Virus record (IMG/VR): IMGVR_UViG_3300046698_000540
Span: 1-64,000 of that record
DNA: 64,000 nucleotides
Origin: a virus
Reading direction: 5' to 3' (one strand)
The number at the start of each line of letters is the position of its first letter. The first letter of the stretch is position 1. The position numbers were made by a program, and so were the translations under genes. The notes beneath the pieces are model-generated. The model worked only from the letters and a program-made list of their open reading frames with translations, searched no databases and was not told the origin of the DNA. Below, in pieces: positions 8,946 to 31,960 of this stretch.

Positions 8946-9047
8946 AAGAGCGGCCAAGACAGAGCAGCGGAAATTAGCGATCCACTTCCCAGATCAAACG
9001 TACAGATCTTGCTTCAATGGGGCCGCTGCTCTGTCTTGACCGCTCTT
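8946..9047 (-). CRISPR. permuted single-spacer crRNA-like element 1 (type I-G/I-U-like half repeats)
   Basis: Minus strand: AAGAGCGGTCAAGACAGAGCAGCGG-CCCCATTGAAGC-[36-nt spacer 9010..8975]-ATTT-CCGCTGCTCTGTCTTGGCCGCTCTT. Confidence 0.75.
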
Positions 9048-9053
9048 ACTCCT

Positions 9054-9812
9054 CTAACGCTTCCTACCGGGCGCCTTTTTCTCCCCGCCCTTTGGCTTGC
9101 GGGGCACCAGCCTGGCCTTGCCCGATTTCGTAACCTTCACATCCGCTTCGCCGGTGTGAAGGACATGAACCACCTCCGCGCCGGTGGCTTCCTCCGCCTT
9201 GGGCTGTGCCCCGCGGCCGCGCTTCTTCGGAGGCGCCGGCAACCCCTTCTTGCGCGCCTTTTGTTCCTTGAACTCGCCGCAGGCGCACTCGGGATCAACA
9301 CATTCTTCCGTGTTCACTTCCGTCGTGCCTTCCTTGAACAGGTGAAGGTGCCCGCATGTGCATGCCAAACCCTGCTCCAAAGGCAACTCCTGCTGCAATT
9401 CCTCGATCATGAGACGGCCGCTCCAACCACGCACATCGTCCAGGAATGCGATGATCGCCTTGGCCAGGATGTCTGTCGTGATCTTGAAGGACACTGTGGC
9501 ACCGGAGCCGTCCAACTTCGTCGCCGCGAAACTTTTCACCGAACAGGACGGAATATGCAACAGCGCGTCTTTTTCCGCCGGTGTACCTGGTAGAGGATAA
9601 AACGAAACCCGCGCCGCCTCGATGTCGTGGTCAAAACCATGCGACGTAAATTCCGTCAGGGCGCCGTTTTTCCTGTACAGCTCCCCATTGCCCAATTCTT
9701 TGGCCAGCACTTCGCTCAATGCGCCCTCGATGGGAATCGAGCTGACCAGTTTCTCTCCTGTGCTCCTGAAACCCGTCGTACCTGTGACGGATGCTTCAAA
9801 AATTTCTAACAT
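9054..9812 (-). CDS. hypothetical protein with Cys cluster and basic tail
   Basis: CTCGH ... CVDPECACG; SD GGAG. Confidence 0.7.
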   Translation of the reverse strand: MLEIFEASVTGTTGFRSTGEKLVSSIPIEGALSEVLAKELGNGELYRKNGALTEFTSHGFDHDIEAARVSFYPLPGTPAEKDALLHIPSCSVKSFAATKLDGSGATVSFKITTDILAKAIIAFLDDVRGWSGRLMIEELQQELPLEQGLACTCGHLHLFKEGTTEVNTEECVDPECACGEFKEQKARKKGLPAPPKKRGRGAQPKAEEATGAEVVHVLHTGEADVKVTKSGKARLVPRKPKGGEKKAPGRKR

Positions 9813-9828
9813 GCGGTATTCTCCTTTT

Positions 9829-10371
9829 TCATTTCATTAAGCCGCGCGCCCTTAAAAGCGCCATGGCCCGTGTCTTGCCTGCTCCATGTCCGTTCTTGAA
9901 CTGTTCCTTCAGTTCCAGATCCTCACGTAACCGTTCTACGATAACACCAAGCAACCCAGGCGTACCTTCATCCTGCTGAACAATATCGAAAAGAGTCTGT
10001 AAAGGCGAGCCGCCAGCTACGTTATCTATGTAATTTCGCATACCTGGAACCTTCGTGGTCGCCAGGCCGTCCATGCACTGCTTCAAGTACTGGTCGATGA
10101 TGTGGATCTGAGGATGCTCGACCGAATCGATCTGGTCAACATCGTGTTCCTCCAGGAACTTGTTGCACGCGGCCATCCAAGGGAACATTTCTTCCGCAGG
10201 ATGCGTTTCAGGCACCTCGCTGGCGGCTGGTTTGCCGGATAGCTGTGTTGAGCGCTTTGTCTTTAGGTTCTCGCTTTTTCCGGGAGGCCAAAGCTCCTCC
10301 CATAGATCGTGATCTTCCGGTTTTCTTCCGGTTTTCTTCCGCGAATCTTCCGGACTTTTTTGTTTTGCCAT
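9829..10371 (-). CDS. hypothetical protein
   Basis: ORF with SD AGGTGGAG. Confidence 0.6.
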   Translation of the reverse strand: MAKQKSPEDSRKKTGRKPEDHDLWEELWPPGKSENLKTKRSTQLSGKPAASEVPETHPAEEMFPWMAACNKFLEEHDVDQIDSVEHPQIHIIDQYLKQCMDGLATTKVPGMRNYIDNVAGGSPLQTLFDIVQQDEGTPGLLGVIVERLREDLELKEQFKNGHGAGKTRAMALLRARGLMK

Positions 10372-10738
10372 GCTCCACCTTGCCGTCCAACTTGTACCTC
10401 ACCCGGATCTGCAAAAGGCCGGCCGGAATGTTCAATGAGATCGGCTGCTCCGCCAGGATCTGGTCCACAATCTCTTTCGGCGCGTCTCCCACCTTCTCCG
10501 GGTGCTCTCTTTCAAACCACAGATAGTAAGGGCACATGAACTGATCTGGAAGTTTGCAGGCGCCGTTGTCAAACCCGTGGATACACTTCCCGTCCTGAAC
10601 CTGAGGAGCACATGTCAGGGGGATTGGCAGCTTCTTCCGAGGCTCAACTTTTGGTGATGGCACACTCAGCCTCCTTGTCACCTTGCCATCTCTTCGTAGG
10701 CTTCTCTTGGTATACCAAAAGTCCGCGAATAAACCCAA
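10208..10738 (-). CDS. hypothetical Cys-rich protein (start uncertain)
   Basis: CIHG ... CKLPDQFMCPYY; overlaps neighbours. Confidence 0.4.
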   Translation of the reverse strand: MGLFADFWYTKRSLRRDGKVTRRLSVPSPKVEPRKKLPIPLTCAPQVQDGKCIHGFDNGACKLPDQFMCPYYLWFEREHPEKVGDAPKEIVDQILAEQPISLNIPAGLLQIRVRYKLDGKVEHGKTKKSGRFAEENRKKTGRSRSMGGALASRKKREPKDKALNTAIRQTSRQRGA

Positions 10739-10834
10739 TCAATATCAGCCCCCTCCTATGGAACTTTTCAAAATCCACAAGCCATCTCGCGGGAACGAAA
10801 TCCCGATCTTGCTCCAATTCCAATAAAGACCAGT

Positions 10835-11572
10835 TCATTGGACCCTTCCCGAAGGTTCTCCTAGCGGCCGCGGAATGACCTTGATCGTCAAGGCACCCTT
10901 ACCAAGACCATACTCTTCCAGCGCCTTCAACGCCTGCTTGCCCATCTCATCCTCCAGGCGGCCCGCCATTGCCAGCTCAGCGATCATCCAGTAGTCTGGC
11001 ACCTCCTTCTCGATCCTGTGCACCAGGCGCCCCAAAGACTCGCGGAGAATGCTGTTGGAACTGTTCCGAATACCGTCAAGCTGGACCAAAACCCATCGGG
11101 CTTGAGCATCTTTCTTTTTGCTGTCCTTCCACTTCTTCGCCCATTCCTCGACGTGGCCCTCCCATACCTCGTGCTTGGGATAAATCAACCTCTCCTGATA
11201 GGGGGGAACACACTTGGCGTCCAGGATCACCTCCAGGGCGCCATTCGTGTTGGCGAACTTGCACCATTGATCGTCTATGATTTGCGGAGGCCATTCTATA
11301 GGTTGCCCACCAAGGATCTTGCAAGCCTCGATCCTGAAATCCGCCGTCAAAACCAGCTCTGCACTTTCCACATGAAACAACACGGGTGGCTTTTCTTTTG
11401 GAATACCATCCTCGTCCAACTCGGCGCCTGCCGTGGCACCGGTATCATGCACTGGATAAGCGTAAGGATTGCCTGTCGCCCACGACATGGATAGATGCCA
11501 CCCACGGATCGGAAAGGGCTCCTCCTTCAGAGCTGTGAAGAGATCCTTTCTGACTTTGCTCGGCTGATTCAT
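10835..11572 (-). CDS. hypothetical protein
   Basis: Start MNQPSK after GGAGGAG; ATGA coupling. Confidence 0.65.
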   Translation of the reverse strand: MNQPSKVRKDLFTALKEEPFPIRGWHLSMSWATGNPYAYPVHDTGATAGAELDEDGIPKEKPPVLFHVESAELVLTADFRIEACKILGGQPIEWPPQIIDDQWCKFANTNGALEVILDAKCVPPYQERLIYPKHEVWEGHVEEWAKKWKDSKKKDAQARWVLVQLDGIRNSSNSILRESLGRLVHRIEKEVPDYWMIAELAMAGRLEDEMGKQALKALEEYGLGKGALTIKVIPRPLGEPSGRVQ

Positions 11573-11964
11573 CGCTCCTCCAATAATTGCCTGAAGATCT
11601 CGTATGGAACCAGGGCCCATTTCTCCGGCTCGTACATCATCTGCCCGGTCAATTCCAGCACCAGAGCGGGTTTTTTTCGCTGCTCGAATGCCTCCAGCTT
11701 CAGCTTGCGCAGCGTCTGGAGACTGAGAGAATACGAAAGCGCGCGGGTGATTTTGCTCTCCACCAGGAATTCCGCGGTGAGGACGTCGCCGCCCTTCCCG
11801 TCGAAGCACCCAGAGCCTGGCTGCTGCCGGCCGCCCAAGTCTTTAGCCAGATCCTTCTCCCGCCGGCGGCCTTGTTTCTGCGGAGTCTCGTTGCGGCCCG
11901 CCTTACTAAATGGTAGGGGGCGTTCCCTCGGGCCCGGCTGAAACCGGGGAGAATCTGATCTCAT
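11569..11964 (-). CDS. Holliday junction resolvase (Hjc-like PD-(D/E)XK)
   Basis: GRRREKDLAKDLGG..QPGSG ... GDV ... LVESK. Confidence 0.75.
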   Translation of the reverse strand: MRSDSPRFQPGPRERPLPFSKAGRNETPQKQGRRREKDLAKDLGGRQQPGSGCFDGKGGDVLTAEFLVESKITRALSYSLSLQTLRKLKLEAFEQRKKPALVLELTGQMMYEPEKWALVPYEIFRQLLEER

Positions 11965-12327
11965 AGTCCTCCATCAATCTCTTAATCTCCAAAAGCAAGC
12001 GCCCCGATGCTGTGGCCCCAAATTCCACAATATCCAGGTCGTTCCCCTCCAGAGTCACCCGTATGCATCCACCGGATAGGAGTTGCACTTCCTTGGCCCA
12101 CCAGAGCTTTTCAGCCACGAGGGCACCTTCGCATCTTCCATTCCATGATGTCCGCGATCTCAAGAAATTCATAAGTATCGCAGCACGTAAACGCCACAGC
12201 CGATGCTAACTGATCTGCGTTTTTTCGAATCATCTCCGCAGCTTCCCTATCCGCCATTGTTGCAGACCTGATAAATAGGGCATCCTTAGCCCGTCTTTGA
12301 ATGCAGCCGCGCAACAAGTCCCTCTTA

Positions 12328-13542
12328 CTACTCATGTTTTTCCTCCAACACCGGAGCAATCGCTGTGGCAACCACCAGGGAGCCTATCTCTTCCTGCGCT
12401 TTTTTCTGGACGACCGCGCGCAAGACTTCGAACTGATCCTGCTCGTACAGCGCCCCAAAGAACGCTTCCTCCCCTTGAGCCCTGACCTTACCGAAGCTGA
12501 ACCAAGAGCCGGCCTGCACCACAATGCCCCACCGCTTGGCGTAGTCGTAGATCGTAGCGTCGTTGTCGATCGACGCCTCACTGAAATTCACCTGGAAGGA
12601 GCCCATTCGCCGGGGACTGAACACCTTGTTCTTGACCGTCATAAAGTTGAGCCATACCGACTCCGCGGCGGCCTCGTGCGCTTCCTTATCACCGATCATC
12701 GTGAAATCGGAATTGGAAAAGGCCAACTGCAGCTCGATGCTGGCCATGTGCCGAAGCGCGTGGCCGCCAGGAGGCTGCGGAGGCATGGGGTAGCTGCTGT
12801 TGATGACATCGCGGAGCTGATTCAACGCGAAAATGGTGCATAGATTGTCCCACATCTTCGGCTGAGCCTTCCCATCCGGGCCTTCCTCTTTCAGCTTGGG
12901 GTGCGGCTGCTTCACGTTCAACCCAGCTTGCCATGCCCGCGTTCCTCTGGTGACGATTCTCGCCAAGGCGCCGGGGGAAAGCCCATCCGACGCCGATTTT
13001 TCAATCACCTCGGCTGGCGACATGGCAGCAATGGAGTCTATCACGATGATGCTGATCTCTGGACATCGCACCAGGCTGGAAACGTAGTCGATCCCTTCCT
13101 CCCCGAACTCGACCGGAACGTAAAGGAACAGGTCTGGGTCGATGTTCATTTTCTGGCGCCATTCCATCGAATCCGAATGCTCCACATCCACCCATGCCGA
13201 CGCGATCGGATCGTTAGCGCCACAATCGCAGCCTCCCTGCTTCACCAATGTGGTGCACCACTGGCAGAATTTTTGCGCCTCGGCGATTGCTTTGTACGAA
13301 AGGAAGGACTTGCCTGTGGAGGGCTTGCCAAACAGATGATTCAGCCGACCGCGGGGCCAACCTCCGCCAGTCTCCAGATCCAAGGCAAAACAGCCTGTGG
13401 GGATGCGGGGAACCCGCTTGAACATCATGCGGCTGCCCACCATGACCACTTCGGCCTCATACTCCTTGTTGATGCGCGCGGCTACGCGCTCCAACTTGGT
13501 GCGGACAATTCCCGCTTTGGAATTTTTTGACTGTTGCGCCAT
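12328..13542 (-). CDS. recA: RecA/UvsX-like recombinase with Cys4 insertion
   Basis: PTGCFALDLETGGGWPRGR, GKPSTGKS, VIDSIAAM, LNQLR, PGGHAL, VKNKV, GSWFSF. Confidence 0.92.
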   Translation of the reverse strand: MAQQSKNSKAGIVRTKLERVAARINKEYEAEVVMVGSRMMFKRVPRIPTGCFALDLETGGGWPRGRLNHLFGKPSTGKSFLSYKAIAEAQKFCQWCTTLVKQGGCDCGANDPIASAWVDVEHSDSMEWRQKMNIDPDLFLYVPVEFGEEGIDYVSSLVRCPEISIIVIDSIAAMSPAEVIEKSASDGLSPGALARIVTRGTRAWQAGLNVKQPHPKLKEEGPDGKAQPKMWDNLCTIFALNQLRDVINSSYPMPPQPPGGHALRHMASIELQLAFSNSDFTMIGDKEAHEAAAESVWLNFMTVKNKVFSPRRMGSFQVNFSEASIDNDATIYDYAKRWGIVVQAGSWFSFGKVRAQGEEAFFGALYEQDQFEVLRAVVQKKAQEEIGSLVVATAIAPVLEEKHE

Positions 13543-13544
13543 GT

Positions 13545-13745
13545 TCACTCCTGGTAGAATCCAACCTTGCCCACTGAGTTGCCGTTCACGTCGAGGATCT
13601 TCCGATCCTCACCGCTGTTTGCGATATTGTGAAGCCTTGTCCCTCCTTTGGCGACAAGTTGGACGAGTGCACGGCGCACATCAAACGCCGTCTTCATAGC
13701 TTCATTTCCCAACTCAATCTCGATCCGGAACACCGTTTTTGCCAT
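13545..13745 (-). CDS. small phage hypothetical protein
   Basis: FRIEIELGNEAM ... ILDVNGNSVG; SD GGGAG. Confidence 0.6.
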   Translation of the reverse strand: MAKTVFRIEIELGNEAMKTAFDVRRALVQLVAKGGTRLHNIANSGEDRKILDVNGNSVGKVGFYQE

Positions 13746-13816
13746 GTTCTCCCTCACTACTGCGGCGCCTAGAGCCTCAAACCCTAAGCGCCGCAAAGTC
13801 GCCCGGCGCCGGCGGC

Positions 13817-13996
13817 CTACTCGCCCGCCTCGGCCTGAGCCTCTCCAAGAGCATCGTTTAACTGACCTACGAGAAGAATTATCTTCTCCAGGATCTTCGG
13901 AATCTTCTTCGACCCCTCCACGCAAGCCTCCAGGCGGCCCGCGTCATCCGACAACTTGCCGATCAGCTTCACGACTTTCTGAATTTTCTTGTTCAT
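13817..13996 (-). CDS. hypothetical coiled-coil protein
   Basis: MNKKIQ start after GGGGGTGA. Confidence 0.55.
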   Translation of the reverse strand: MNKKIQKVVKLIGKLSDDAGRLEACVEGSKKIPKILEKIILLVGQLNDALGEAQAEAGE

Positions 13997-14159
13997 CGTA
14001 TCACCCCCTTTCCCAATGAAAACTTCGGAACACCGGGAGGACCGCACACCTCCCGGGTCCTGCCGGCCAGGAATTTTGGTTGTACCTATTCACCTTTCAG
14101 CTGGCCTTGACCGTGGGCCTCGACGTTGCGGCGTTGTACCCATTCCACCCGGCTCGAAC

Positions 14160-14381
14160 TTACTCCGCGGCCTTTTTCTTGCGCCCTTTGCGGGGCTTCT
14201 GTTCGGCACCCTCGGCCGGCAATTCTGCGCCCGCCATGTATTCCTGCTTGCTCTTTTGCTTGCGCGGCCGTTTGGTACCAAATTCCGCCACGGCCAAATT
14301 CAGAACCACCTCGCGCTTCTCCTTGGGAAGGTTGCGAAGCGATTCCATGATTCTCACTTCGTCAGAACTACGTCTCGGCAT
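14160..14381 (-). CDS. hypothetical basic protein
   Basis: 73-aa ORF with SD AAGGA. Confidence 0.6.
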   Translation of the reverse strand: MPRRSSDEVRIMESLRNLPKEKREVVLNLAVAEFGTKRPRKQKSKQEYMAGAELPAEGAEQKPRKGRKKKAAE

Positions 14382-14488
14382 AAATTCCTTTCAAAAACGC
14401 GCCGGAGGTATCTCTAGGCCGACTCGCACGGCTCCAGCGCCTCTGCCAGGGTGTTATCTTCAGCTCGACTCTCACGAGCCTGGCGAAC

Positions 14489-15304
14489 TCAGTACGCAAC
14501 TTCTGTAGTCGATTCCTCGCCGGCGCCGCCCTGCTGGATGTTCTGCGATCCCATCCAGGCCAGAGCTTCCGCCCGAGTCTTCGGCCGCAAAATCGCCGGG
14601 TAGTCGATCGGCTTCACCAGCGCCTTGAACTGCCAGTTGAGCTTCTTGCCCACTGCGGGATTCTGTGTATCCAGGATCGTGATTTCCCGCTCCGGCATCC
14701 CGGTCATCTTGACCTTGATCTTCTTCGTGGGCAGCCGCTCTACGAAATCGAACACGTTGCCCATGTTCGGACTCTTATCTCCCGACCGCGAAACCCTGAA
14801 CCAGCAGCCGGCCAGGTCGCCGCCGCGGGCGTCGGCCAAGATCCGAAGAGCCTTCAGTGCGTCGCCTTTCGCCGGGTACAACGTGGTCTCCCACCGGTGA
14901 ATGGTGCCGTCCTTGGCCTTCCACTCGGATCCATCCAGGACCGTGTAGGCGCCCACGAAATAGTTCTTGTTGCCGGCCTCGTCGAAGCAGCATTTTTCGC
15001 CGGTCCCGATCAAGCACGTATTCCAGTTGCGCCAATGGCCGTCCAGATAAAACTGGTGCTCACGATACGTGAACGGGATTCCGTCCACGAACACCACATT
15101 GTTCACCAGCGTCTTCGGAGGCGTGCCCGTCTTCTCGGGCATCCAATATCGCCGGATGGCGTTGGCCCAATCCTCGCGCTGTTTGTCAAGACGCTGAACT
15201 TCCTGGCCCACTGAATCGTAGCCAGTTTGAAACCACCCCCCGCCTCCGGCAGGAGCTTCGGCAGCGGGGCTACCACCGCCTTTTGTCGTCTGCTTTTTTG
15301 CCAT
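14489..15304 (-). CDS. single-stranded DNA-binding protein (gp32-like)
   Basis: YREH ... TCL ... CC ... AYTVLD ... FRVSRSG pattern, acidic tail, replication context. Confidence 0.65.
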   Translation of the reverse strand: MAKKQTTKGGGSPAAEAPAGGGGWFQTGYDSVGQEVQRLDKQREDWANAIRRYWMPEKTGTPPKTLVNNVVFVDGIPFTYREHQFYLDGHWRNWNTCLIGTGEKCCFDEAGNKNYFVGAYTVLDGSEWKAKDGTIHRWETTLYPAKGDALKALRILADARGGDLAGCWFRVSRSGDKSPNMGNVFDFVERLPTKKIKVKMTGMPEREITILDTQNPAVGKKLNWQFKALVKPIDYPAILRPKTRAEALAWMGSQNIQQGGAGEESTTEVAY

Positions 15305-15353
15305 ACTGTTTTTCCTTTGTTGTGAGTTGTCGTTTCCTACACTGACACTACCG

Positions 15354-15713
15354 TCAATATCTCCGCTTGCCGGTTTTTGCCTGCGCGCCTCCTTTGAATG
15401 TGGTCGATGCCGGTTGAGCCTCGCCGGTCCTCTCGTGAAGAGACCTGCGAACGTCGATCGACTGTCCTTCGATCTCGTGAGAAACGAAATCCTTGGCCCT
15501 GAGGAGGGCCTTTTCCAGGGTTTCGTCCGGTCGAACGTCCGTCGCCATTCCCGCGTCTACGCGAGCTGACTCATAGTTGCCGAGATTCAGAGTCAACCCG
15601 CATGAAAAGAAAACCCGATCCGGAATCCCTGTGTTCACGGGCCCCAAGCCGCCTTGCATGCGCAAACGCTCAGCCGCCACCAGGGATTCCTGTCCCGCCT
15701 TCGCTTTTCCCAT
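15354..15713 (-). CDS. hypothetical protein
   Basis: GLTLNLGNYESARVDAG, a motif common in phage hypotheticals. Confidence 0.65.
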   Translation of the reverse strand: MGKAKAGQESLVAAERLRMQGGLGPVNTGIPDRVFFSCGLTLNLGNYESARVDAGMATDVRPDETLEKALLRAKDFVSHEIEGQSIDVRRSLHERTGEAQPASTTFKGGAQAKTGKRRY

Positions 15714-16443
15714 GTTCACCTTTCCTTGCGTAACTTGGCACAGGCAAATTCGGTGTCACCCGCGCCAACAATCCATGTTCAGTAGAAACCGTATACAACG
15801 CCGGGTAAATCCCCAACGGCCGCAAATCGTCCCAGGATGCTTTCACCTGCGCGAGAAGCCCAATTTTCTCAAAGCTCACCGGAGGTCTCAAATCGAACCC
15901 GGCGAAAACTTTCATCAGCATCTCCACCTGATCCTGAGTCCAGAGGCGAGTCATGATGGCCCTCGCCCCTTCCTTACCTCGCCGGTCTTTGTACAGGGTG
16001 TCCGGGAGAACTCCGTCCCTCACCCAAAGCTGAACGGTTTTGGTTTGCTTTCCCAAGCGGCGCGCCAACTCCTTGATGGTGTACATCGCCACGGCATACC
16101 TCTTGCCGACCATTTTATAGATCGGCCGCGGAGGCTTCGGAATCGACTGCAGGCAGGTGGGGCAATACAGGTGACCTGGCGATCTGCTGCTCTTAGGCGG
16201 GGGAGGGCCTACCACCTTTCGGATTTCTTCCTCCAGCTTGCGGCGCCGCTTGTATGCCGCACCGGCGCGCTTTTTGGCCGCTTCCTTGTACGCGGGATCC
16301 GTTGCGTAGCGGTTTTTTTTCGCCTTCGACAGATCCTCGGCGTGCTCGTCGTTGTAATTCTTGTGATAATCGAGCATCTTCTTTCGGGAAGCATTCTTCT
16401 CGTCTCGCTCCTCCCGAACTTTCACGATATTGGGCACGGCCAT
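15670..16443 (-). CDS. MerR-like HTH DNA-binding protein
   Basis: YTIKELARRLGKQTKTVQLWVRDGVLP ... RLWTQDQV. Confidence 0.75.
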   Translation of the reverse strand: MAVPNIVKVREERDEKNASRKKMLDYHKNYNDEHAEDLSKAKKNRYATDPAYKEAAKKRAGAAYKRRRKLEEEIRKVVGPPPPKSSRSPGHLYCPTCLQSIPKPPRPIYKMVGKRYAVAMYTIKELARRLGKQTKTVQLWVRDGVLPDTLYKDRRGKEGARAIMTRLWTQDQVEMLMKVFAGFDLRPPVSFEKIGLLAQVKASWDDLRPLGIYPALYTVSTEHGLLARVTPNLPVPSYARKGEHGKSEGGTGIPGGG

Positions 16444-16452
16444 AAAAACCTC

Positions 16453-17088
16453 TTATTTCAGCAGCTTAGGCAGGAGAGCGTAGGTGGGGTCCGGCTTATC
16501 CAGAATCGCCTCCAACTCGGATGGAGATATCAATTGCGCCAGGCATAGACCGTCCACCTTATCTGAGTTGACCTCTTCGACGATCTCCACGCCCATGTCC
16601 CGCAATTGCTTGCGATTCTTCCACAGGAATTTCTGAAACAAATCCCCGCAAGTGGTGATACGCAAATCTACCGCAGCGTCCCACAGCTTCTTCTTTTTCA
16701 GAAGCGTTTCCAGCTTCTCCGGATTCGGCCGCCAGGACCTTTTCTCCTGAATCGTGAGCTGGCCCAGGCCGGGATACTCGAACAGCCTGTGCTGATTCTT
16801 GTCCCCTGTGGGGGAGCCTTCCTCCCGGCGCATTTGAAGGCCGTAGTTTTCCTCTTCCTTGTCCTTGATCTTTTCCAGGAGTTTTGCAATGCGCTTCGCC
16901 ATCGCATCGAGGACGATGTAGAGCGGCACCAGCCGGTTTGTGGGAATAACCGCGACCTCACCGGCCTCCACCAGAGCGATCAACTGCTTAGGCGTGGAAA
17001 CCAGAGCCACTTCCGCGCCGGTCCCTTTCAAGTCTTGAAGCACATCTTCAGACACAACTTCAACCGTCACTGCCGTTTTCTTTGCCAT
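16453..17088 (-). CDS. hypothetical protein
   Basis: Start after GGAAAGGTGAAC; first gene after a promoter. Confidence 0.7.
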   Translation of the reverse strand: MAKKTAVTVEVVSEDVLQDLKGTGAEVALVSTPKQLIALVEAGEVAVIPTNRLVPLYIVLDAMAKRIAKLLEKIKDKEEENYGLQMRREEGSPTGDKNQHRLFEYPGLGQLTIQEKRSWRPNPEKLETLLKKKKLWDAAVDLRITTCGDLFQKFLWKNRKQLRDMGVEIVEEVNSDKVDGLCLAQLISPSELEAILDKPDPTYALLPKLLK

Positions 17089-22899: not shown

Positions 22900-24057
22900 C
22901 TACTCCTGCGTGTCCTTCAGAATCACTTGCGCGCCTTGGATCGCTTCTCTGATCGCTTCTGCCTCCATGCCCCCCGGATCTGCACCAGCTTGATTATCAC
23001 CGTAGCGCACACGATGAAACCTAACCCTACATCCGACCAGTTCATAAAGCTCTCTGTCTCCTTTTCTGCCGGCCTGGTCGTTATCCAGGAACGAAACGAT
23101 ACGACGATCCGCCGTCAGTCGAACCAACAGGTTAGCCTGCTCCTGCGAGGGCGAACTTCCGAGTAAGGCCAGCGGAAGAACCGGGAAGCCCATGCTGTCA
23201 CGAAAATCGCGTGTAGCCTGCCACACCATGAGGGCATCCACCACTCCTTCCACCACCACTGCCACGAACCCTGACGGCTGCTTCAAGTATGCCGCTTCCA
23301 ATTTTCCTGACTGAAACCAATGTGCTCCAAAAAGATGCTTCGCCTTCCGGAATCCTTCTTGCGCGTGCTCCCGGTCCACCTGAATTCCTCCACAGCTTTC
23401 ACAGCGGTACGTGTTGTTGTGGCTCTCCAAAGGATACCCGCATGAATGAACTCTGGACCAGAGATTCTTGTACTTTACATCGTGCTCGTGCATCAACCGG
23501 GTGGCTCCGCCCACGGTACCCACCAGTTTTCCCTCAGCATCCCTGACCGGGAATATAATCCTCTGCGTCTTCCTGTCGAAACCCAGACCCCAGGCCCTGC
23601 AGGTTTCCAACGTCACCCCGCGGTCTAAAAGCCTCTGCGCCACCCGGCCCTGGTAGGGGGCCAGCCAGGATTCCGGAAAAATCCGGTAAGGCTCCCGAGC
23701 GGCGCCGGCAAAATGGCTCTCAAAGGGGGGAACACTGGCGGCGATCGCCTCTGGATCCTGGTACAGCAGCGCGGCCAGGCGCTCCAGGGCCTTGGAGCAA
23801 TCGTAGCCTAGTTCTCGTTCCAGGAGGCGAAAGAAGTGCTCCACAGGGCCTTTCCGGCCGCAAGCCAGGCAATTCCAGGTGCCTCCGTTCTCCTCGTCGT
23901 CCGGTTTGACCCCGAGCGAGGGCGTCCGGTCCACCTGGTGGGAATGGCCGGACACCGCCGCGAAAGGACATCGCATGGTGACGTTACTCGACCGGATCAT
24001 ACCCGCCATGGGGGGATTTACCAGCGCCAGCAGCTCCACCACATCATCCACGTTCAC
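22900..24057 (-). CDS. DnaG-type primase (Zn finger + TOPRIM)
   Basis: CPF ... H ... D.TPS ... WNCLACG, RIIFPVRD, VVEGVVDA, FLDNDQAG, DPG. Confidence 0.88.
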   Translation of the reverse strand: MNVDDVVELLALVNPPMAGMIRSSNVTMRCPFAAVSGHSHQVDRTPSLGVKPDDEENGGTWNCLACGRKGPVEHFFRLLERELGYDCSKALERLAALLYQDPEAIAASVPPFESHFAGAAREPYRIFPESWLAPYQGRVAQRLLDRGVTLETCRAWGLGFDRKTQRIIFPVRDAEGKLVGTVGGATRLMHEHDVKYKNLWSRVHSCGYPLESHNNTYRCESCGGIQVDREHAQEGFRKAKHLFGAHWFQSGKLEAAYLKQPSGFVAVVVEGVVDALMVWQATRDFRDSMGFPVLPLALLGSSPSQEQANLLVRLTADRRIVSFLDNDQAGRKGDRELYELVGCRVRFHRVRYGDNQAGADPGGMEAEAIREAIQGAQVILKDTQE

Positions 24058-24067
24058 TTATTACCCC

Positions 24068-25870
24068 CTATTTCGCCGGGCGCGCTTTCTTGGTTTTGGA
24101 AGGTTTCTTGACGGCCTCGGCCTTTGTTTTCTTCGCCTTACTGCCGGGCGCTTCCTGTTTTTTTCCTGACTTTGAGGGCGACTCCCCGAGCCCAAGCCTG
24201 GACGCTGCGCGCTGCTTCCGGACACCGTACTTCTCCGCCAATGGAACCCACAGCTCCTTGAACTCCACACCCCGGTTTTTGGCTATCAGGTAGATCGGAT
24301 TTGGCTTCGAATACCTGTCCTTGGCCTCCTTGATCTCCCGGCTACGGCCAATATGATTGAACAACTGCAACTCCAGCAGGAACAGCGAGAGCGACACAGG
24401 ATCCTTCACCATCTCCTCGGCCCGCTTCTCGACGGCGCCTGCATAGTCCCGACCTTCCTTGACGCTCCCAATCGTGCCAGCGCCGAAGATGGCATCGCAG
24501 TACCTCTTCAGCATGTCGTGATAGGTTCGGGCAATGCACTCGTGAGCCACCAGCACCAGCTCATCCAAAGCAAGCCGCCCGGTCCCTTCCTTTATGGCCT
24601 GCACAAGGAAGGGCACGGCCAACATGTCCTCTTCGTTGTGCTGCTTCGTCTCCAGCTCGCGGTTTTTTTGCTCCAGGTTCGATTTCCTCGTCGTAAGGGG
24701 CTGGGAAGCCGCCGCGGAAGTGCCCTTCTGAGGCTCCCGAAACGAAACGATCTTGCCGATATCGTCACCGGCAACCACAATGCCTGACTTCACACCGGGC
24801 GCCTTTGCATCCTTGCCCTTGACGATCTCGTATTCGTCACAAGACAGAACACCTTTTACTGGATTTCTGTAGCGAACCGTGGACACGGGAACCAGTGCTT
24901 CTCCGTGATGAGAATTCAGCCACAGTTGCTTTGTATTGGCAATTTGCGTACCTACCTTTGCATCAAAGCACTTGGGGTCCGTGCAGGTGTCCTGCTCCTT
25001 GACGTCTGGGAACAAGAGCGTGTTCGCCCCTGTGCGCTTCGGACAAGTAGTGCACGGCCCCGCCGCGGGAATCAACTCAGCGTCCTCCAGGCTGAACGGC
25101 GCCTTCGTCAGTTGCAGATGAAAATTCCGCTGGATGAACTCCTTCAACCTGCGAATCGGTATCAGCCCGTCCCATCCCCCCGCGCACTCCTTCATCGTCT
25201 GTTTCTGCTCATCTTCCGTGAGCCTGGCGATCTCCAGAGCGTGCTCCAAATGGAGCTGACCTTTCCAAAACGCTTTCTTGGCCGGCTCGATCAGTTGATT
25301 AAGCTGCAACCGAAGCTTCACATAGGTGGGCTTTTTTCCCACCTTGCCGGCGAGAACTTCCATATCCTGATAGGTCTTGGACAACGCCAAATACCCTTCG
25401 GCCTCTTCCAGGGGATGCACGTCTTCCCGCTGAATGTTTTCGATCAGAATGATCTCGCGTGCATCGTCGTCGGATAAATCCCTGATGGAGGCGGGAATTT
25501 TCTCGAGACCTGCTATCACGGCCGCCTTCCAGCGCCGGTTGCCTGCTATCACCTGATAGCCTAGGACCTCCCGAACGTGCGACTCATCTGGACCCTCAAA
25601 AATCGGCCGCAAGACCAAATTCTCCAGAATGCCATGCGCCCGAACGGAGGCAACCAGGTCCTCCATCTTCTGCTTGTTGAACTCCCTGCGTTGATTCAAA
25701 CCCGACTCCCGCAGCAATTTGACTTCAACATCGTGCTGCCCGGACGCGGGTAGTTGTGTTACCGTCTGTGTGTCCATTTTCTGTCCTTTCTCGATGTAAT
25801 AAGCCGCATCCAATCTGCATCCTGGCGAGGCGGCGATCTCCGCCGAGGAAACTATTCGTGTTCTTACCAT
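24068..25870 (-). CDS. ParB/RepB/Spo0J-family protein
   Basis: HGILENLVLRP, IAGNRRWKAA, IENIQREDVHPLEEAEGY, HTH, CTTCPKR ... CTDPKCF. Confidence 0.88.
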   Translation of the reverse strand: MVRTRIVSSAEIAASPGCRLDAAYYIEKGQKMDTQTVTQLPASGQHDVEVKLLRESGLNQRREFNKQKMEDLVASVRAHGILENLVLRPIFEGPDESHVREVLGYQVIAGNRRWKAAVIAGLEKIPASIRDLSDDDAREIILIENIQREDVHPLEEAEGYLALSKTYQDMEVLAGKVGKKPTYVKLRLQLNQLIEPAKKAFWKGQLHLEHALEIARLTEDEQKQTMKECAGGWDGLIPIRRLKEFIQRNFHLQLTKAPFSLEDAELIPAAGPCTTCPKRTGANTLLFPDVKEQDTCTDPKCFDAKVGTQIANTKQLWLNSHHGEALVPVSTVRYRNPVKGVLSCDEYEIVKGKDAKAPGVKSGIVVAGDDIGKIVSFREPQKGTSAAASQPLTTRKSNLEQKNRELETKQHNEEDMLAVPFLVQAIKEGTGRLALDELVLVAHECIARTYHDMLKRYCDAIFGAGTIGSVKEGRDYAGAVEKRAEEMVKDPVSLSLFLLELQLFNHIGRSREIKEAKDRYSKPNPIYLIAKNRGVEFKELWVPLAEKYGVRKQRAASRLGLGESPSKSGKKQEAPGSKAKKTKAEAVKKPSKTKKARPAK

Positions 25871-25877
25871 GTTCACC

Positions 25878-26846
25878 TCAAAATGGAACGTCGTCATCGT
25901 TGGGATCGAACAACGGCGTTGCGGCTTGCTTCCTCGGCTTCGCCGGTTTCTTCTCCATCAGGAATTTGTCGTAAGGCGTCAACTGCACCACGTCCTTCAC
26001 CTTCTCCACGCCGTCTTCCCCTTCCACCTCGATCGACGTGATGTATTTGTCCTTCTGTGAGGCCAAAAGTTTCCCCGGTCGCTGGCTGTTCACCTCAGCC
26101 TCATGCTTCGCCGATTCCGACCGCGGCAATGGTTTGTCCGCCCAACCCCTGTCGGGGTCATAGACGAAATCGTGCTTTGACTTCAAATCCAGCTCGAAGT
26201 ACTCGCCGCACTTGCCGGCCAAATAATCTCGGGCCAGTTTGAAGTCTTCGTAAACCTGAGTCTTCATCTCGGCGTTTTCTTCCCTGAGCAGGTATGACGG
26301 ATGGTACGTGGCCAATCCAACCACTTCGCCATACCCGATCGTAAGAAATTTTCCGCGCACTGAACCAATCCGAAGAGTGGCGGGATCCGCGCCAAGCAAA
26401 CCATGCATCGCTGTGGACCCAACCGCCAGGATCAGCCTCTTATTGGGCAGAGCTTCCAATTGCCGGCGCAAAAATCCCGCGCAATTGCTGGATTCCTCCG
26501 CGGTGGGCGTCCTGTTCTTGGCCCAACCCGAGTCCATGATGTCGCAACAGCGGCATTTGCACATGTTCAGGAAATATGTGTTCGTCTCGTTGTATCCGAT
26601 CGACTCAAGACCCCTGTGAAGCAATTTTCCAGCGCGGCCGACAAATGGGATGCCCTGCTTATCCTCATCGTCTCCAGGGCCTTCGCCGAGAATCACCAGG
26701 CGCGCCAGGGGACTTCCCTTGCCGAACACCGAATGTTTCCGGGTGAGGGCGATCTGGCACTTGTGGCAACTGGCCGCCTCCCGCTCGATTTGCGTGAGCA
26801 GCTTCAACGTGCGTTTGCGAACCTCTTCTCCCGTTTCCATGACCAT
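25878..26846 (-). CDS. family 4 uracil-DNA glycosylase-like protein
   Basis: CHKC ... [18 protein letters not shown] ... KCR ... NRTP ... TYHPSYLLR. Confidence 0.9.
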
Positions 26847-27068
26847 GTATCCTTGCTAAGACCTGCAGGTGCCTGATTTCGCTGCGGAGATTTGCAATGC
26901 GCCGCTCCAAACGATACCTCTCGCCGCGGTGAAGCTGCTTTTCGTCCTCCACCTGTCTTTCCAGGTCACCTATCCGACTATGAAGTTTAGCTAGTGCCAC
27001 ATCAAAATCTTTGGACATCTGAACAGACGCCCTGGCTGCCTCGTTGATAATACCGCTCATAGATCTCC

Positions 27069-28334
27069 TCAGTATTTCATCTCGCTGGGGTCAATTCCCG
27101 AAGAATATCCGCCACCTTCTTCATCCTCCAGGGAATCGAACTCCATGCCTTCCAGGTCCCACTTGATACGGACCGGATAAGTAGGCAAGTCCTCTTCGCG
27201 GATTTTCAGGAACTGCGCCAGCATCTCTTTGTTGATCCGCTCATCAGAACCTTGCACCAGCTTCAAAGCCCAATCGCAGAACTGGCTGTAGGCATCCGAA
27301 TAGGCAGCGTTGTCCAAAGTGGCATTCCGCGGATCTTCTTCCCTGTTCAACTGGTTGTTCACCACCCATTTGGAGCGATCCTGCTTCGCGGCCGCTTTTA
27401 TTCCACGGGCAACCGACATGCGGCCTTCCCAACCGGTGAGGCCTTCGTCGTTGTCCACCAGATATACACCGTCGATCCCGATCCAGGTAACGCCGGCCTG
27501 GCGGGCCATGGCTTGAATCGAAAGAGGCGTGCAGGGGCCGTCGAACTCCGGAAAATACAACGACGCCATTCCTTCCATCTCGGAAAGCGCCTGGTAGTAT
27601 TGCTTTTCCAGAACGTTGCCAAGTTCACCGCGGCGAAACGCCTGGTAGGGAAGTTTCGCATGAAGAGCGTCGTACCGATTCTCCAACGCTAGGCGATCCA
27701 TTTCCCGGGAAACCAGCATCACGCGCTCGCCGGAAAGTTGCGCCGCGTGCGCCATCATCATAAGCTGCCAGGTTTTTCCGGTTCCCCGTTTGCCTAGAAC
27801 GTATCCGAAGTCCCCAGGTTGCACACCCAACGTCCATTTATCAAACCAGGCGAACCCTGAGGGTGTGCCATAGAGGTTGATCTTGTCTCTACGCTGCTCA
27901 TAGCGGAATTTTCTTTCCGCCATGTTTCGGGTGACGTCCAGCAGCCGTGTGGAGGATCTGAGCGCGGCGATCTCCATGCTGCCTTTGGCCAGGACGTCGG
28001 CCGCCAGGTCCACGTCATCCACCTTCATGGCGGCGCCCATGGAGGCCATGATGCCGGAAATCCGGTTGTAACGAGTCCTCTTCCTCAGCTCCTCCACTAC
28101 CCACTCGGGCTGCTCCTTGTGATGTTCCAGCGCATAGCTGGCATGTTTCCTGCGGATGATCGACTCTGCCGGCAGCTTGCCGTGAAACTTGGGATTCGCC
28201 CAATAGGCCCAGATGAACGCGGCGACTTCCTTCATAGGCCCCTGGAAATCCTCAACTGTGAGTCCACCGGAGACGAAGGGTTCCAGCTTCCCCTCCGTCA
28301 GGATCACGTCTATGGCTATCTTGTCAAGATCCGT
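27069..28334 (-). CDS. DnaB-like replicative helicase (start uncertain)
   Basis: GKRGTGKT, VSREM, IGIDGVY, NQLNRE, AYSDAYSQFCD, KIRE. Confidence 0.88.
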   Translation of the reverse strand, partial: TDLDKIAIDVILTEGKLEPFVSGGLTVEDFQGPMKEVAAFIWAYWANPKFHGKLPAESIIRRKHASYALEHHKEQPEWVVEELRKRTRYNRISGIMASMGAAMKVDDVDLAADVLAKGSMEIAALRSSTRLLDVTRNMAERKFRYEQRRDKINLYGTPSGFAWFDKWTLGVQPGDFGYVLGKRGTGKTWQLMMMAHAAQLSGERVMLVSREMDRLALENRYDALHAKLPYQAFRRGELGNVLEKQYYQALSEMEGMASLYFPEFDGPCTPLSIQAMARQAGVTWIGIDGVYLVDNDEGLTGWEGRMSVARGIKAAAKQDRSKWVVNNQLNREEDPRNATLDNAAYSDAYSQFCDWALKLVQGSDERINKEMLAQFLKIREEDLPTYPVRIKWDLEGMEFDSLEDEEGGGYSSGIDPSEMKY

Positions 28335-28516
28335 GGCACACCTCCCGGACCAACAGGCACCTTCACCATGGCGAGATCCGCCGGCGCCCCGCAATGATCG
28401 CAGTGAAACACCACGCCATCGAACAGACTTGAGAGACAGTACCCCGTGAGCATGAGCGGATGATATTGGCAGCAACAGGTCATGCACCAATCCTGATAGG
28501 GGCTATTTTGCGCCAC
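28316..28516 (-). CDS. small Cys-rich protein
   Basis: CMTC ... CDHCG. Confidence 0.5.
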   Translation of the reverse strand: MAQNSPYQDWCMTCCCQYHPLMLTGYCLSSLFDGVVFHCDHCGAPADLAMVKVPVGPGGVPRILTR

Positions 28517-28979
28517 TGAAATACCTCCGCAGAATGGCGCTCACCTGTCCTTTCCTTGCTTCTCCCGGAGGCGGCAGCTCGTCTTCTGAAGGGAACAACA
28601 CCTTGCAAATTTCTTCCGTAATGTCATCAAAGCTGTCGTGCTTCCGACTTAAAATCTTTCGTATCTTAGCCATGTTCCCCCTCAATAAATCGCCGTTACC
28701 GCGCAACCTCGACCGTGCCTGGACGCCACCTGAAGGAGGTTCATCTTCTCGGGCGGATTTCCGGCGCCATTGTTGATGAGCACGTAACAGGAATCGTCCA
28801 CGAGGATGTCATTCTTGGGATCTGAAATTCCCAGGAACGCCTGCGGAGGCATGGCGTCCGGCTTGTACGCGTAGATGCAGAAGTTTCCATCCGGATCTCT
28901 TTGCGCACCCAAATAATCCAGCGACTCCAGGAGCTCCTTCTGCGAAATAAGCCGGCCTTGCCGGAGTGGTGGCAGAGGT

Positions 28980-29249
28980 TTACTCAAGGCCGTCTCCTTC
29001 CTTCGGTAAATCCGCGATTTTTCCGTGTTTGGAAGCCCACGCCTCCATGCGGTCCGCCTGCCGCATTGCTGACGACGTGCATACATCCGAACCGCCGTTG
29101 ACTTTGTTCAGATGTGCCCACGCCCTAACCGTCGCGGCACCCACCATATCCCGGCCCAGAACCAAAAACACTGGCTCCTCGTCCGGAATCAGGTGTGCCG
29201 AATCCTGGATCCGTTCCGTATAGTCTTTTCTCGCGTGCTGCATGTTCAC
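28980..29249 (-). CDS. phage hypothetical protein
   Basis: DEEPVFLVLGRD ... AATVRAWA motif. Confidence 0.65.
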   Translation of the reverse strand: MNMQHARKDYTERIQDSAHLIPDEEPVFLVLGRDMVGAATVRAWAHLNKVNGGSDVCTSSAMRQADRMEAWASKHGKIADLPKEGDGLE

Positions 29250-29439
29250 TTCCTCCTGATCTTTTGGCTGCTCACCAACTCGAAAGACTCGACCTTGACG
29301 TCCACCCCCGCCACATCCGCCATTTCCAACTGCTTTCGCAACTGGCCCTCTTCCGAAGGCTTTTCGCCGGCGTCAACGAAAGTTTCCTCTGTCAGAAGCA
29401 CAACCGCGCGATACTTCGTAACTAAAACGTTTTCCATGT

Positions 29440-29613
29440 TCACCTTTCCATAGCGCAGGCAGGACACCTGTACTCAATTATCTCCTTGCCATAACCTAAG
29501 GGCACCACAACAGCACAAGTGTGACCACACTCCAATTCAAGAATCACCGCCTCCTGGTCTGGAGCCATAATCCCTAGGGGGTCTCCTTTAGACCTACGCA
29601 AAACTTTCTTCAT
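29440..29613 (-). CDS. 57-aa Zn-ribbon protein; absent from the ORF track
   Basis: MKKVLRRS ... LECGH ... YRCPACAMER, SD AAGGAG. Confidence 0.55.
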   Translation of the reverse strand: MKKVLRRSKGDPLGIMAPDQEAVILELECGHTCAVVVPLGYGKEIIEYRCPACAMER

Positions 29614-29835
29614 TGGATTGCTCCTTCTACCTTTCCATGGTTGACCCGATCAAAATACCTAGTACGAGAGCTTGGTGGATCTTAGCTGCCAGCCCTGTGG
29701 TGGCATTATCTATGAGAGCCAGGGTCATAGTCAGAACCCAAGTTTCCCTTCCGAGTTCTTGAAACGACTCAACTATCGCAGGATCTTGCGCGGCGAATTT
29801 TTCGAAAATAGATGTGCCTGCTTCTTCCAAAGTCA

Positions 29836-30345
29836 TCATCGAAGTATGCTCGCATCCCACTGATCCACGTATATAACCAGCGACGTGGGCAGGTACTTGG
29901 CCAACTCCTTGTCGCGCGTATAGAAGCGCAGCGCGCGCTCGCCTCGGCAGTATTGGTGCACGTCCATCGCCTGTCCTCCATAGTCCGGCGAAGGCACCAA
30001 ATGAAATCCGCTGTTGGGGAACTCTCCTAAGACGTACTCCACCGCCTTGACCAAACCGGCCGCGTAGGGCGCCCGCACAAGAACTTCAATACGAAGGCCC
30101 TTGTCCAACAGCCACCAGCCTGCCGTTTCCGCTTCCTTGGTGAGCTTGTACCTGGCGATGTAGAAAGGCAGCAGTTTCCGGAACAACCAACGAGTCCAAC
30201 GGTGATCTCGGAGCCATTCGTAAATCTTGAGGCCCCAACCTGGCTCTGGCGCCTTAACCAGAGCATCGAAGTCTATCACCACCAGGGGCGCCAACTTGTT
30301 GGAAATATCTCTACGCATCATAAGGCACCAGAGCGTGCGAACCAT
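29836..30345 (-). CDS. hypothetical protein (degenerate HAD-like?)
   Basis: LVVIDFDAL motif; start uncertain. Confidence 0.5.
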   Translation of the reverse strand: MVRTLWCLMMRRDISNKLAPLVVIDFDALVKAPEPGWGLKIYEWLRDHRWTRWLFRKLLPFYIARYKLTKEAETAGWWLLDKGLRIEVLVRAPYAAGLVKAVEYVLGEFPNSGFHLVPSPDYGGQAMDVHQYCRGERALRFYTRDKELAKYLPTSLVIYVDQWDASILR

Positions 30346-30482
30346 TGCTCGAATTAGGGCACTTCGTTACCTTATCGACCTGACTGAAAACTTGCAAGCA
30401 TCGGACGCATTGAATAGCCTTAGCATATTGCAATGCCACCAGAGCGTAGGCATAATCCTTTTCTTTCACTTAGCAGTCTCCT

Positions 30483-30520
30483 AAAAGGAGGGCGCGGCGA
30501 TACTCTGTCGCGCCCTTTTT
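30483..30520. terminator. hairpin with A/T tracts on both sides (intrinsic terminator candidate)
   Basis: aaaagg-agggcgcggc-gatactct-gtcgcgccct-tttt. Confidence 0.55.
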
Positions 30521-30717
30521 CGCCCGACTAAAGGGTACGGGGGCTATGGTCTGCCGAGTCAAACTCCGAAGAGCGCCCGTTCCAAACCGAATCTGCCGGG
30601 GCTCGCCATTCGATGTGCGCCCCCAATCGGATCCCCTGGCCTCGGTCATCTCCCGTATCGAGACTCCTCAATGGCACTCAGGTTTTCCTTTACAGAGTTC
30701 TTACGCCCCCGATAAAT

Positions 30718-31821
30718 TCAGGCGGCTACAAGTTCCTGCCAGTCGCGCTGGCTCAATTCAATCACCTGGCCGCCGGCGCGTTCCAAATCCACCGAGCGCT
30801 CGTAGGAAACCGACTCGTCATTCGCCACGGCCGTTATCGCTTGCGCAAGGCCCCACTGGGATAAATCTCCCCCCTGAATCAGATTCTTCAGGATCGAGTC
30901 CCCTTCCGTGTCGGTAAACCCGTACTTGGACTGCACCACTTCCTGAACTTCCTGAAGGGATGCGCCACCTTTGGGGATCTGGTTATCCGCCGCGGCGCGC
31001 ATTTTCTCGATGAACTTCTGGAAGTTGGCTTCATCGAAGCTGCCGCGCACCACGTCCACCACCTTGCGCCAGAATGCATTGTCGTCGGCCCTCCGCGTGG
31101 CGTCCGTGAAGAACTCCTCGACGCCTTCCATGTCCCCAACGCCGCGGCCTACATGGCGCCGCTTCAGAGAAGAGTCTGGACGGATCATCCCGTTGTAGCA
31201 AACCAAGCGGTAGAACGCCGGCTCGATCGAGATCTGCGAGTGGCCCACTTCCGAATTGGTGATGACCACGCCGGCCTGCACCACGTCGTTCAGCTTCACG
31301 GCCGCGGTGAGCCTGCTGGTGAACGCCTTGATGAAAAACCGCGTCTCGGTGATCTGAATGGACTCGATCCTCATGCCCTGCGCGTGCTCTCCCATCAGCG
31401 TAGGCACCACCGCTTTGAACAGGTCGTAGTTGTCGAGCGGCCGATACTTGTCGCCAAGGTACGCCCGAGCCTGGCCATCTAGAGTCCTGACCAAGCGCGT
31501 TTCATCCTGGTGTTGGAACCAGTAGTTCACGTTCAGAGGGACCAGCTCCGGACCGTTGTCCATCATGCGCTCGTAGTACTCCCATCGAATTTTGGTGCGC
31601 TCCGCGACCTGTTGGTGCGCCAATCTGCGCATAGGAAAAACACCCTGATCGCCTATGCTGAGAGCATATTTCATTTGGAACCCTTCCGGCGACTGCACCA
31701 CCTGGTAAGGATCCAAAACCTGGACTTGGAGTTTCGAGGACGGAGCCTTGAAATCCCGCTTAGTGTCCGCTTGCCTTTGAACTTCTTTAGCGAAATCGCC
31801 TAATGCCATTCCTTGTTTCAT
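30718..31821 (-). CDS. DUF932-family protein
   Basis: RLVRTLDGQARAYLGDKYRPLDNYD ... GVVITNSEVG ... RLVCYNGMI ... RRHVG. Confidence 0.85.
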   Translation of the reverse strand: MKQGMALGDFAKEVQRQADTKRDFKAPSSKLQVQVLDPYQVVQSPEGFQMKYALSIGDQGVFPMRRLAHQQVAERTKIRWEYYERMMDNGPELVPLNVNYWFQHQDETRLVRTLDGQARAYLGDKYRPLDNYDLFKAVVPTLMGEHAQGMRIESIQITETRFFIKAFTSRLTAAVKLNDVVQAGVVITNSEVGHSQISIEPAFYRLVCYNGMIRPDSSLKRRHVGRGVGDMEGVEEFFTDATRRADDNAFWRKVVDVVRGSFDEANFQKFIEKMRAAADNQIPKGGASLQEVQEVVQSKYGFTDTEGDSILKNLIQGGDLSQWGLAQAITAVANDESVSYERSVDLERAGGQVIELSQRDWQELVAA

Positions 31822-31846
31822 GTTTCTTCTCCATGTTCTGTTCTCT

Positions 31847-31960
31847 TGATTGGGCTTCTTCGACTCATTGAAGCGGAAATTTTGCTTGCTCGCCTATCAA
31901 AACCGGAGCCACAGCCTTGCTTCAATGGGGCCGCTCCAATGAGCCGAAGAAGCCCAACCA
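31847..31960 (-). CRISPR. permuted single-spacer crRNA-like element 2 (type I-G/I-U-like half repeats)
   Basis: Minus strand: TGGTTGGGCTTCTTCGGCTCATTGGAGCGG-CCCCATTGAAGC-[38-nt spacer 31918..31881]-ATTT-CCGCTTCAATGAGTCGAAGAAGCCCAATCA. Confidence 0.75.

Follow-up and report, generated by a model that had tools for sequence, protein, structure and literature searches.

How might a phage encode a guide RNA for a CRISPR system without carrying any intact CRISPR repeat? The question is raised by the first 64 kb (the window, the whole 64,000-nt stretch analyzed here) of the 100,369-bp virus record IMGVR_UViG_3300046698_000540, a record estimated to be ∼80% complete. Two elements in the window, at 8946–9047 (unit 1) and 31847–31960 (unit 2) on the minus strand, have the halves of a repeat swapped around a single spacer, and no intact repeat is present in the 100-kb genome. 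We consider it rather more probable than otherwise that these units are one-spacer guide RNA genes built on a circularly permuted type I-G repeat, whose products would load the host Cascade against rival mobile elements. The observations that carry this reading are the anatomy of the units, the type I-G identity of the repeat, covariation and strand bias in the stem, enrichment on viral contigs, and a target flanked by a protospacer-adjacent motif (PAM).

Inspection of the two elements revealed exactly the layout first described for them, with coordinates, component parts, and spacers of 36 and 38 nt as claimed. In the transcription sense, unit 1 begins with a 25-nt 5′ arm that ends in GCGG (9023–9047), an extended 3′ half of the repeat stem. 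This is followed by a CCCC linker running from the stem base to the predicted Csb2 cut (9019–9022), the 8-nt 5′ handle ATTGAAGC (9011–9018), which is identical to the 3′ end of this clade's type I-G repeats, the 36-nt spacer (8975–9010), the first 4 nt of the repeat, ATTT (8971–8974), and a 25-nt 3′ arm that begins with CCGC and pairs with the 5′ arm (8946–8970). Unit 2 consists in the same order of a 30-nt 5′ arm ending in GCGG (31931–31960), the CCCC linker and ATTGAAGC handle (31919–31930), a 38-nt spacer (31881–31918), and a segment at 31847–31880 that comprises ATTT (31877–31880) and a 30-nt 3′ arm starting with CCGC (31847–31876). Read on the plus strand, linker and handle appear as GCTTCAATGGGG at 9011–9022 and 31919–31930, with AAAT at 8971–8974 and 31877–31880.

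The arms pair over 25 bp with one non-Watson-Crick pair in unit 1 and over 30 bp with three in unit 2. As had been claimed, all four of these pairs are A-C on the plus strand and G-U on the minus-strand RNA. Both stems form without interruption in the minus-strand RNAs, whose folding energies are −61.3 and −63.5 kcal/mol (z −7.7 and −6.8), as compared with −54.4 and −48.8 kcal/mol for the plus strand. The 16-mer common to both units occurs exactly twice in the 100-kb genome, against a calculated chance expectation of ∼3e-5 per 64 kb for an exact 16-mer. No second copy of either spacer was found in the phage genome or within 1.6 kb.

A scan of bacterial and archaeal genomes for the 16-mer returned at least 120 loci. 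Among the matches listed, viral matches included, 75 loci contain arrays with a 36-nt repeat made up of GCTTCAATGGGGCCGC, a 12-nt middle, GCGG, and an A-rich tail (most commonly AAAT), and the array carriers among these matches belong to Acidobacteriota, Planctomycetota, Verrucomicrobiota, Myxococcota, and other phyla. Cas3g (TIGR02621, E 8e-160) and a Cas4g/Cas1g fusion (NF049935, E 5e-211) are encoded next to arrays of the intact repeat, and the type I-G consensus cited in the earlier note agrees with 52 distinct 36-nt repeats. In RNA sense the repeat reads ATTT-CCGC-hairpin-GCGG-CCCC-ATTGAAGC. When joined, both halves of the phage units match array repeats exactly (5′ ATTTCCGC ... GCGG CCCC ATTGAAGC 3′), which identifies them as a genuine type I-G repeat; one of the matching loci (L102) lies in a metagenome-assembled genome whose type I-G repeat ends in GCGGAAAT. 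The 12-nt middle occurs in 49 versions among the 52 repeats, always pairing, to give a hairpin of 7–10 bp in total. Given this hypervariable yet pairing middle, only the parts kept by the phage units look sequence-specific, and the parts conserved across the repeats of different hosts are those that the phage units retain.

The arrangement of these parts agrees with published biochemistry. According to Shangguan et al. (2022, PMC9638904), cleavage by Csb2 falls 4 nt 3′ of the base of the hairpin and yields an 8-nt 5′ handle, with the protein remaining attached to the 3′ hairpin. The geometry of the units, in which the GCGG stem base is followed by 4 nt (CCCC) and then by the 8-nt ATTGAAGC handle, corresponds exactly to that cut, in keeping with the 8-nt handle that had been proposed for them.

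These features suggest the following scheme. Transcription probably runs along the minus strand and takes in both the unit and the neighboring replication and early genes of the phage. The GCGG-ending 5′ arm would pair with the CCGC-starting 3′ arm, so that the repeat hairpin would regain its base and CCCC-ATTGAAGC-spacer-ATTT would take the place of its “loop.” Host Csb2, which in type I-G is a Cas5-Cas6 fusion, would bind the stem, make one cut between CCCC and ATTGAAGC, 4 nt past the base, and stay on the two-strand stem. In the product, the handle (8 nt) and spacer would be followed by a loopless 3′ stem that two RNA strands hold together, and host Cas7g, Cas8g, and Cas3g would use this product as a CRISPR RNA (crRNA) against rival mobile DNA. 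The absence of a cas operon noted for the window holds for Csb2, Cas7g, and Cas3g, for which no match was obtained anywhere in the 100-kb record (∼80% complete). Lacking any detectable type I-G cas gene, the phage would have to borrow the machine of its host.

In the viral collection, 74 loci carry the 16-mer, and 26 of them are single permuted units with quite different arms and spacers. Among the matches listed, permuted units account for only 2 of 120 bacterial loci, a difference from the viral proportion with a Fisher p of 1e-10. The two bacterial-genome units (L108 and L193) have no recognizable cas genes beside them. A covariance model, R1, was built from the alignment of 24 distinct units, and it scores units 1 and 2 at 67.9 bits (E 6e-14) and 59 bits (E 1e-11), respectively. 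The model recovered more units with variant handles (CCTC linker, ATTGAAGT), and a scan for the CCTC variant added 16 distinct units. In total, ∼43 distinct permuted units were found, 41 of them on viral contigs. The homologue search proposed in the earlier note thus bears it out: these units keep the handle and the CCGC/GCGG stem base, while the arms are unrelated and the spacers differ. Within the clade, the permuted unit is the most frequent form of this repeat on viral contigs. Two or three units, dispersed on either strand, occur together in each of several phages (L241, the contig of L234/L243, L221, L252, L058, and L031).

In the 24 aligned units, 92.9% of cells in the 14-bp stem are paired, as opposed to 59% after shuffling and 39–53% when the partner is slid. 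Of the 10 variable stem pairs, all 10 show changes in both partners, and covariation scores 0.838 as against 0.17 for shuffled data, with none of 500 shuffles scoring as high. The ATTT position is T-rich across the same 24 units. Non-Watson-Crick stem pairs are biased toward G-U on the handle-sense strand (29 versus 9, p 8e-4; the tally adds the stems of units from the CCTC scan to an earlier count of 18 versus 4), which points to an RNA structure on that strand and not to a DNA feature. Stems across units span 9–30 bp and so exceed the native 7–10-bp hairpin, presumably because a loop of ∼56 nt must be closed. Unit spacers measure 34–42 nt (median, 37.5 nt), as compared with ∼35–39 nt for array spacers. 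The strand of flanking open reading frames around units on other contigs was dropped as an indicator, being too noisy in GC-rich DNA.

The search for spacer targets proposed in the earlier note succeeded for spacer 1 and yielded nothing for spacer 2. Metagenomes were scanned with the PAM-proximal 23 nt of spacer 1, leaving every sixth base free and 20 bases fixed. Two contigs, L199 (2326–2361) and L200 (4316–4351), match at 32 of 36 positions. The mismatches fall at positions 18, 24, 33, and 36, three of which belong to the every-sixth positions left unread by type I effectors. Beyond the 20 fixed bases, 12 of 16 positions agree (calculated chance, ∼4e-5). A third match, L201, satisfied the pattern only and was set aside as a chance seed match. 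The viral collection and 401 genomes from the order of Bryobacteraceae genome G001 gave no match to spacer 1. The protospacer is flanked on its 5′ side by TTC, which fits the TTN PAM of type I-G (PMC9638904, citing Almendros 2019). The DNA of the phage itself reads AGC at the PAM position, so that the phage would not target itself.

The matched site corresponds to codons 30–42 of a 93-amino acid Xre-type helix-turn-helix (HTH) gene (HTH_31). The target contig (L200:653–5362, and likewise L199) encodes a tyrosine integrase, a small HTH protein, an AAA/HTH protein, a DnaG-type zinc-ribbon (primase-like) protein, and the Xre-type HTH protein; no tRNA gene is present on L200 or L199, and no homologue of the genes of this element was found in the phage. 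This content suggests a small integrative element of a satellite- or prophage-like kind. Its gene set is also reminiscent of P4-like satellites or satellites of the phage-inducible chromosomal island type. Homologues of its AAA protein, at 57 and ∼50% identity, occur in two acidobacterial genomes that have type I-G arrays of this clade, a weak hint from sequence as to the host. Unit 1 would accordingly aim the host machine at an Xre-type regulator gene of an integrase-bearing element that probably shares the host, and a guide aimed at such an element implies a role in competition between mobile elements. Of the three roles that had been proposed for the units (decoying host Cascade, guiding it against rival elements, and repressing host genes), guiding against rival elements is the one for which evidence was obtained; decoying or repression may accompany it or stand in its place.

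Three further units relate their spacers to the genome that carries them. In L241, L060, and L069, the spacer is an 80–88% copy of the carrier's own sequence 10–110 nt downstream (regions L241:6831–7040, L060:5940–6130, and L069:3540–3700). The L241 copy is the start of the next gene (approximately codons 6–18), with differences that are whole-codon changes, and the L069 copy is preceded by a degenerate handle, CTAAAGC. A comparable situation is known from SPV1 and SPV2 (Medvedeva et al. 2019, PMC6858448): their mini-array spacers match sibling viruses near the array, and at the corresponding locus the carrier itself shows point mutations or deletions. The diverged nearby copies therefore suggest that permuted units target as virus-borne mini-arrays do. 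The copies could have originated by local duplication or recombination, or they could reflect a homing-like arrangement.

Several points weigh against the guide RNA interpretation. Transcription, the Csb2 cut, 3′-end formation, Cascade loading, and interference are all steps that we infer. For another type I-G system, a preprint describes cleavage by Csb2 at another site and without a need for the stem (10.1101/2022.08.19.504415), so that accounts of Csb2 biochemistry differ. A single Csb2 cut would leave the guide joined to downstream mRNA, and a second, 3′ processing step would be needed, for which RNase III acting on the long stems or trimming by the host are candidates. The 25–30-bp stems could, for that matter, be RNase III substrates instead. 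With lengths of only 2.6 and 5.4 kb, the contigs that contain the target characterize the element only in part. Spacer 2 had no target in the viral collection, in 401 genomes from the order of Bryobacteraceae genome G001, in five array-bearing genomes, or among cultured phages and plasmids. The spacers of two other units (L034 and L063) matched only themselves in the viral collection.

The most serious competing explanation, which we nonetheless regard as unlikely, is that the units are RNA anti-CRISPR (Racr)-like decoys that mainly soak up Csb2 and Cas7g, or fill Cascade harmlessly, and so weaken the immunity of the host to the phage, with the content of the spacer being irrelevant. Phages do use repeat mimics in this way (PMC10651486), viral contigs bear complete solitary repeats of type I-G from the same clade (e.g. 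L026, L027, L055, and L228), the units are placed among early and replication genes, and most spacers have no known target. Yet a bait for Csb2 would need neither a handle nor an array-length spacer nor a T-rich 3′ linker. Spacer 1 moreover has a PAM-flanked, near-full match, and three spacers mirror nearby loci of their own carriers, as is seen in mini-arrays that target. Competition with host crRNAs could still arise as a side effect of the units.

Rather less credence is given to regulatory crRNA-like RNAs of the Cracr/CreR kind, which would use partial complementarity to a host promoter, such as that of a cas operon or defense gene, to bring about repression without cleavage. Silencing of cas or toxin genes by viral crlRNAs is known for types V-A, I-B, I-C, I-E, and I-F (10.1101/2024.10.29.618823). 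No spacer match was seen in the cas-flanking loci examined, a search that partial matches of ∼10 nt would have escaped. Against a regulatory role, the spacers are full length and different in each unit with no common seed, the 32/36-nt match of spacer 1 exceeds what a regulator needs, and the two bacterial-genome units do not lie beside cas genes.

A role confined to the mRNA, in which Csb2 or RNase III is borrowed only to cut or stabilize polycistronic transcripts at intercistronic hairpins, appears improbable. Each unit is indeed followed directly by a gene, the likely start codons being 7 and 26 nt away, and stems of 25–30 bp are of a size suited to RNase III, but such an element leaves the conserved handle, the spacer-length loop, and the PAM-flanked match of spacer 1 unexplained. 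That the units are inert relics, fragments of host arrays acquired by recombination and now decaying in phage genomes, is very unlikely given the compensatory stem changes: phages do recombine with CRISPR loci, and L069 has a degenerate handle-like remnant beside its unit, but decay would not preserve stem pairing by compensatory changes in ∼43 units, extend stems past the native 7–10 bp, preserve the handle, or produce the G-U strand bias.

Read as guide RNA genes, the permuted units represent a gene architecture that is new for phage-borne guides. Virus-borne mini-CRISPR arrays (Medvedeva et al. 2019, PMC6858448; review PMC11656645) are like the units in being viral, cas-less, intergenic, and of the host's repeat type, in carrying spacers against other mobile elements while a nearby locus of the carrier is similar but mutated or altered by indels, and in possibly being present in several copies per genome. 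Unit 1 has the cas-less viral carrier and the spacer matching a mobile element that are typical of mini-arrays; for unit 2, no target was found. The two differ in construction. Mini-arrays have at least two intact repeats around the spacer and a leader, whereas in the units the spacer comes after the 3′ half of a repeat and before the 5′ half. Unlike mini-arrays, the units also have a long-range stem of 9–30 bp, and one cut, not two, would free the 5′ end of the guide.

Racrs, or solitary repeat units (Camara-Wilpert et al. 2023, PMC10651486), are phage-encoded repeat mimics that engage Cas6-type proteins, as the permuted units would. They are whole, spacerless repeats acting as decoys, in contrast to a split repeat enclosing a spacer of 36 or 38 nt. 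Because SRUFinder needs a full-repeat match, permuted units would go unreported by it. Cracr/crlRNA genes (10.1101/2024.10.29.618823) and the host CreA/CreR mini-arrays (10.1101/2023.03.03.530964) resemble the units as single-spacer genes outside arrays that re-program Cas effectors. In them, a repeat-like element comes before a short spacer that matches cas or toxin promoters only in part, and they are known from types V-A, I-B, I-C, I-E, and I-F, not from type I-G and not in permuted form. The canonical type I-G crRNA (PMC9638904) shares with the predicted product the 8-nt handle, a spacer of ∼36 nt, and the 5′ part of the repeat as a Csb2-held stem. The product of a unit would have a bimolecular 3′ stem far exceeding the native 7–10 bp, and the gene, unlike a canonical type I-G array, is solitary, phage-borne, and far from any cas gene. 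Mini-arrays, Racrs, and viral crRNA-like regulators thus all contain at least one whole repeat or repeat-like element. A spacer between swapped repeat halves closed by a long-range stem is not described in the literature searched, in which type I-G is not covered either.

Should the scheme be correct, a crRNA could be made without an intact repeat: the stem base with its two flanks, contributed by the sequences on the two sides of the spacer, would suffice. The minimal substrate of Csb2 would thereby be defined, and type I-G tools would gain a very compact guide design. The phage would probably be arming host CRISPR against rival mobile DNA in a form invisible to array finders, and surveys of arrays, mini-arrays, and solitary repeats would be overlooking a common phage use of host CRISPR. 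Unit 1 would then point to a concrete, testable conflict between a 100-kb peat phage and an integrase-bearing element. The lytic phage ICP1 directs CRISPR guides at the chromosomal PLE satellite of Vibrio cholerae, much as is proposed here. ICP1 brings a complete type I-F system, whereas the peat phage would bring only guides and would represent a guide-only counterpart to phage-encoded CRISPR systems that attack satellites. For the wider proposition, that one-cut split-repeat guide genes are widespread, re-aim type I-G Cascade-Cas3 at satellites, prophages, and sibling phages, and may also spread like homing cassettes, we see the chances as evenly balanced. Homing-like spread would proceed by repair of the damaged rival genome from the carrier, and some units do adjoin the carrier's own mutated copy of the target.

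Both units are intergenic, between minus-strand genes, and sit amid the early and replication genes of the phage. Upstream of unit 1 in the sense of transcription lies a gene with no family match (9054–9812, minus strand). The gene just downstream (8046–8957, minus strand) encodes a PD-(D/E)XK/Cas4-like exonuclease (phrog_1706, phrog_2506, and phrog_1990, E 1e-13 to 3e-17), and its likely ATG at 8939 is 7 nt past the arm of unit 1. This nuclease was considered as a relative of Cas4g and rejected, since it is not close to the Cas4g domain of type I-G systems; no link to adaptation is therefore claimed, and the protein is probably a recombination nuclease. Unit 2 is preceded by a gene for a DnaC-like helicase loader (32107–32763, minus strand; phrog_50, E 4e-30; PF01695) and followed by one for a DUF932 protein (30718–31821, minus strand; PF06067, E 4e-11; phrog_1362, E 6e-45), the unit ending 26 nt before the likely start codon of the latter. 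Comparison of the flanking proteins with the viral collection gave zero or only remote relatives. No Rfam family reached the gathering thresholds within the window. Neither a σ70-like promoter near either unit nor a useful terminator was found; the σ70 consensus may not be that of the host, and co-transcription with the flanking genes is possible. The inner stem of unit 2 (31862–31876 on the plus strand, partner 31931–31945) holds a near-copy of the handle, CATTGGAGCGG in the minus-strand RNA directly before CCCC-ATTGAAGC and CATTGAAGCGG on the plus strand, which may be a local duplication of the handle.

The phage was detected in at least 17 peat or permafrost DNA metagenome runs, with small shares in three metatranscriptome runs. 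Contigs from four runs were short and broke around the hairpin, and one RNA-library contig lay within the upstream gene with none spanning the unit, so that these data are uninformative on transcription or processing. The phage is a common member of the peat virome, and its source runs span many studies.

Viral contigs also contain this repeat clade in other arrangements. Solitary but complete type I-G repeats are present on L026, L027, L033, L049/L051, L053, L055, L228, and L255 and are candidate Racr-type decoys; type I-G is not covered in the searched text of the Racr paper (PMC10651486). A conventional mini-array, consisting of a degenerate repeat, a spacer, and a repeat, occupies one location in related viral contigs with three different spacers, one in each of the sets L005/L018/L028/L050/L072, L006/L011/L017/L024/L025, and L015/L016. 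An outer inverted repeat, GCGCGTCTC ... GAGACGCGC, encloses the mini-array. These contigs suggest turnover of the spacer in an element whose ends are paired as in the permuted units.

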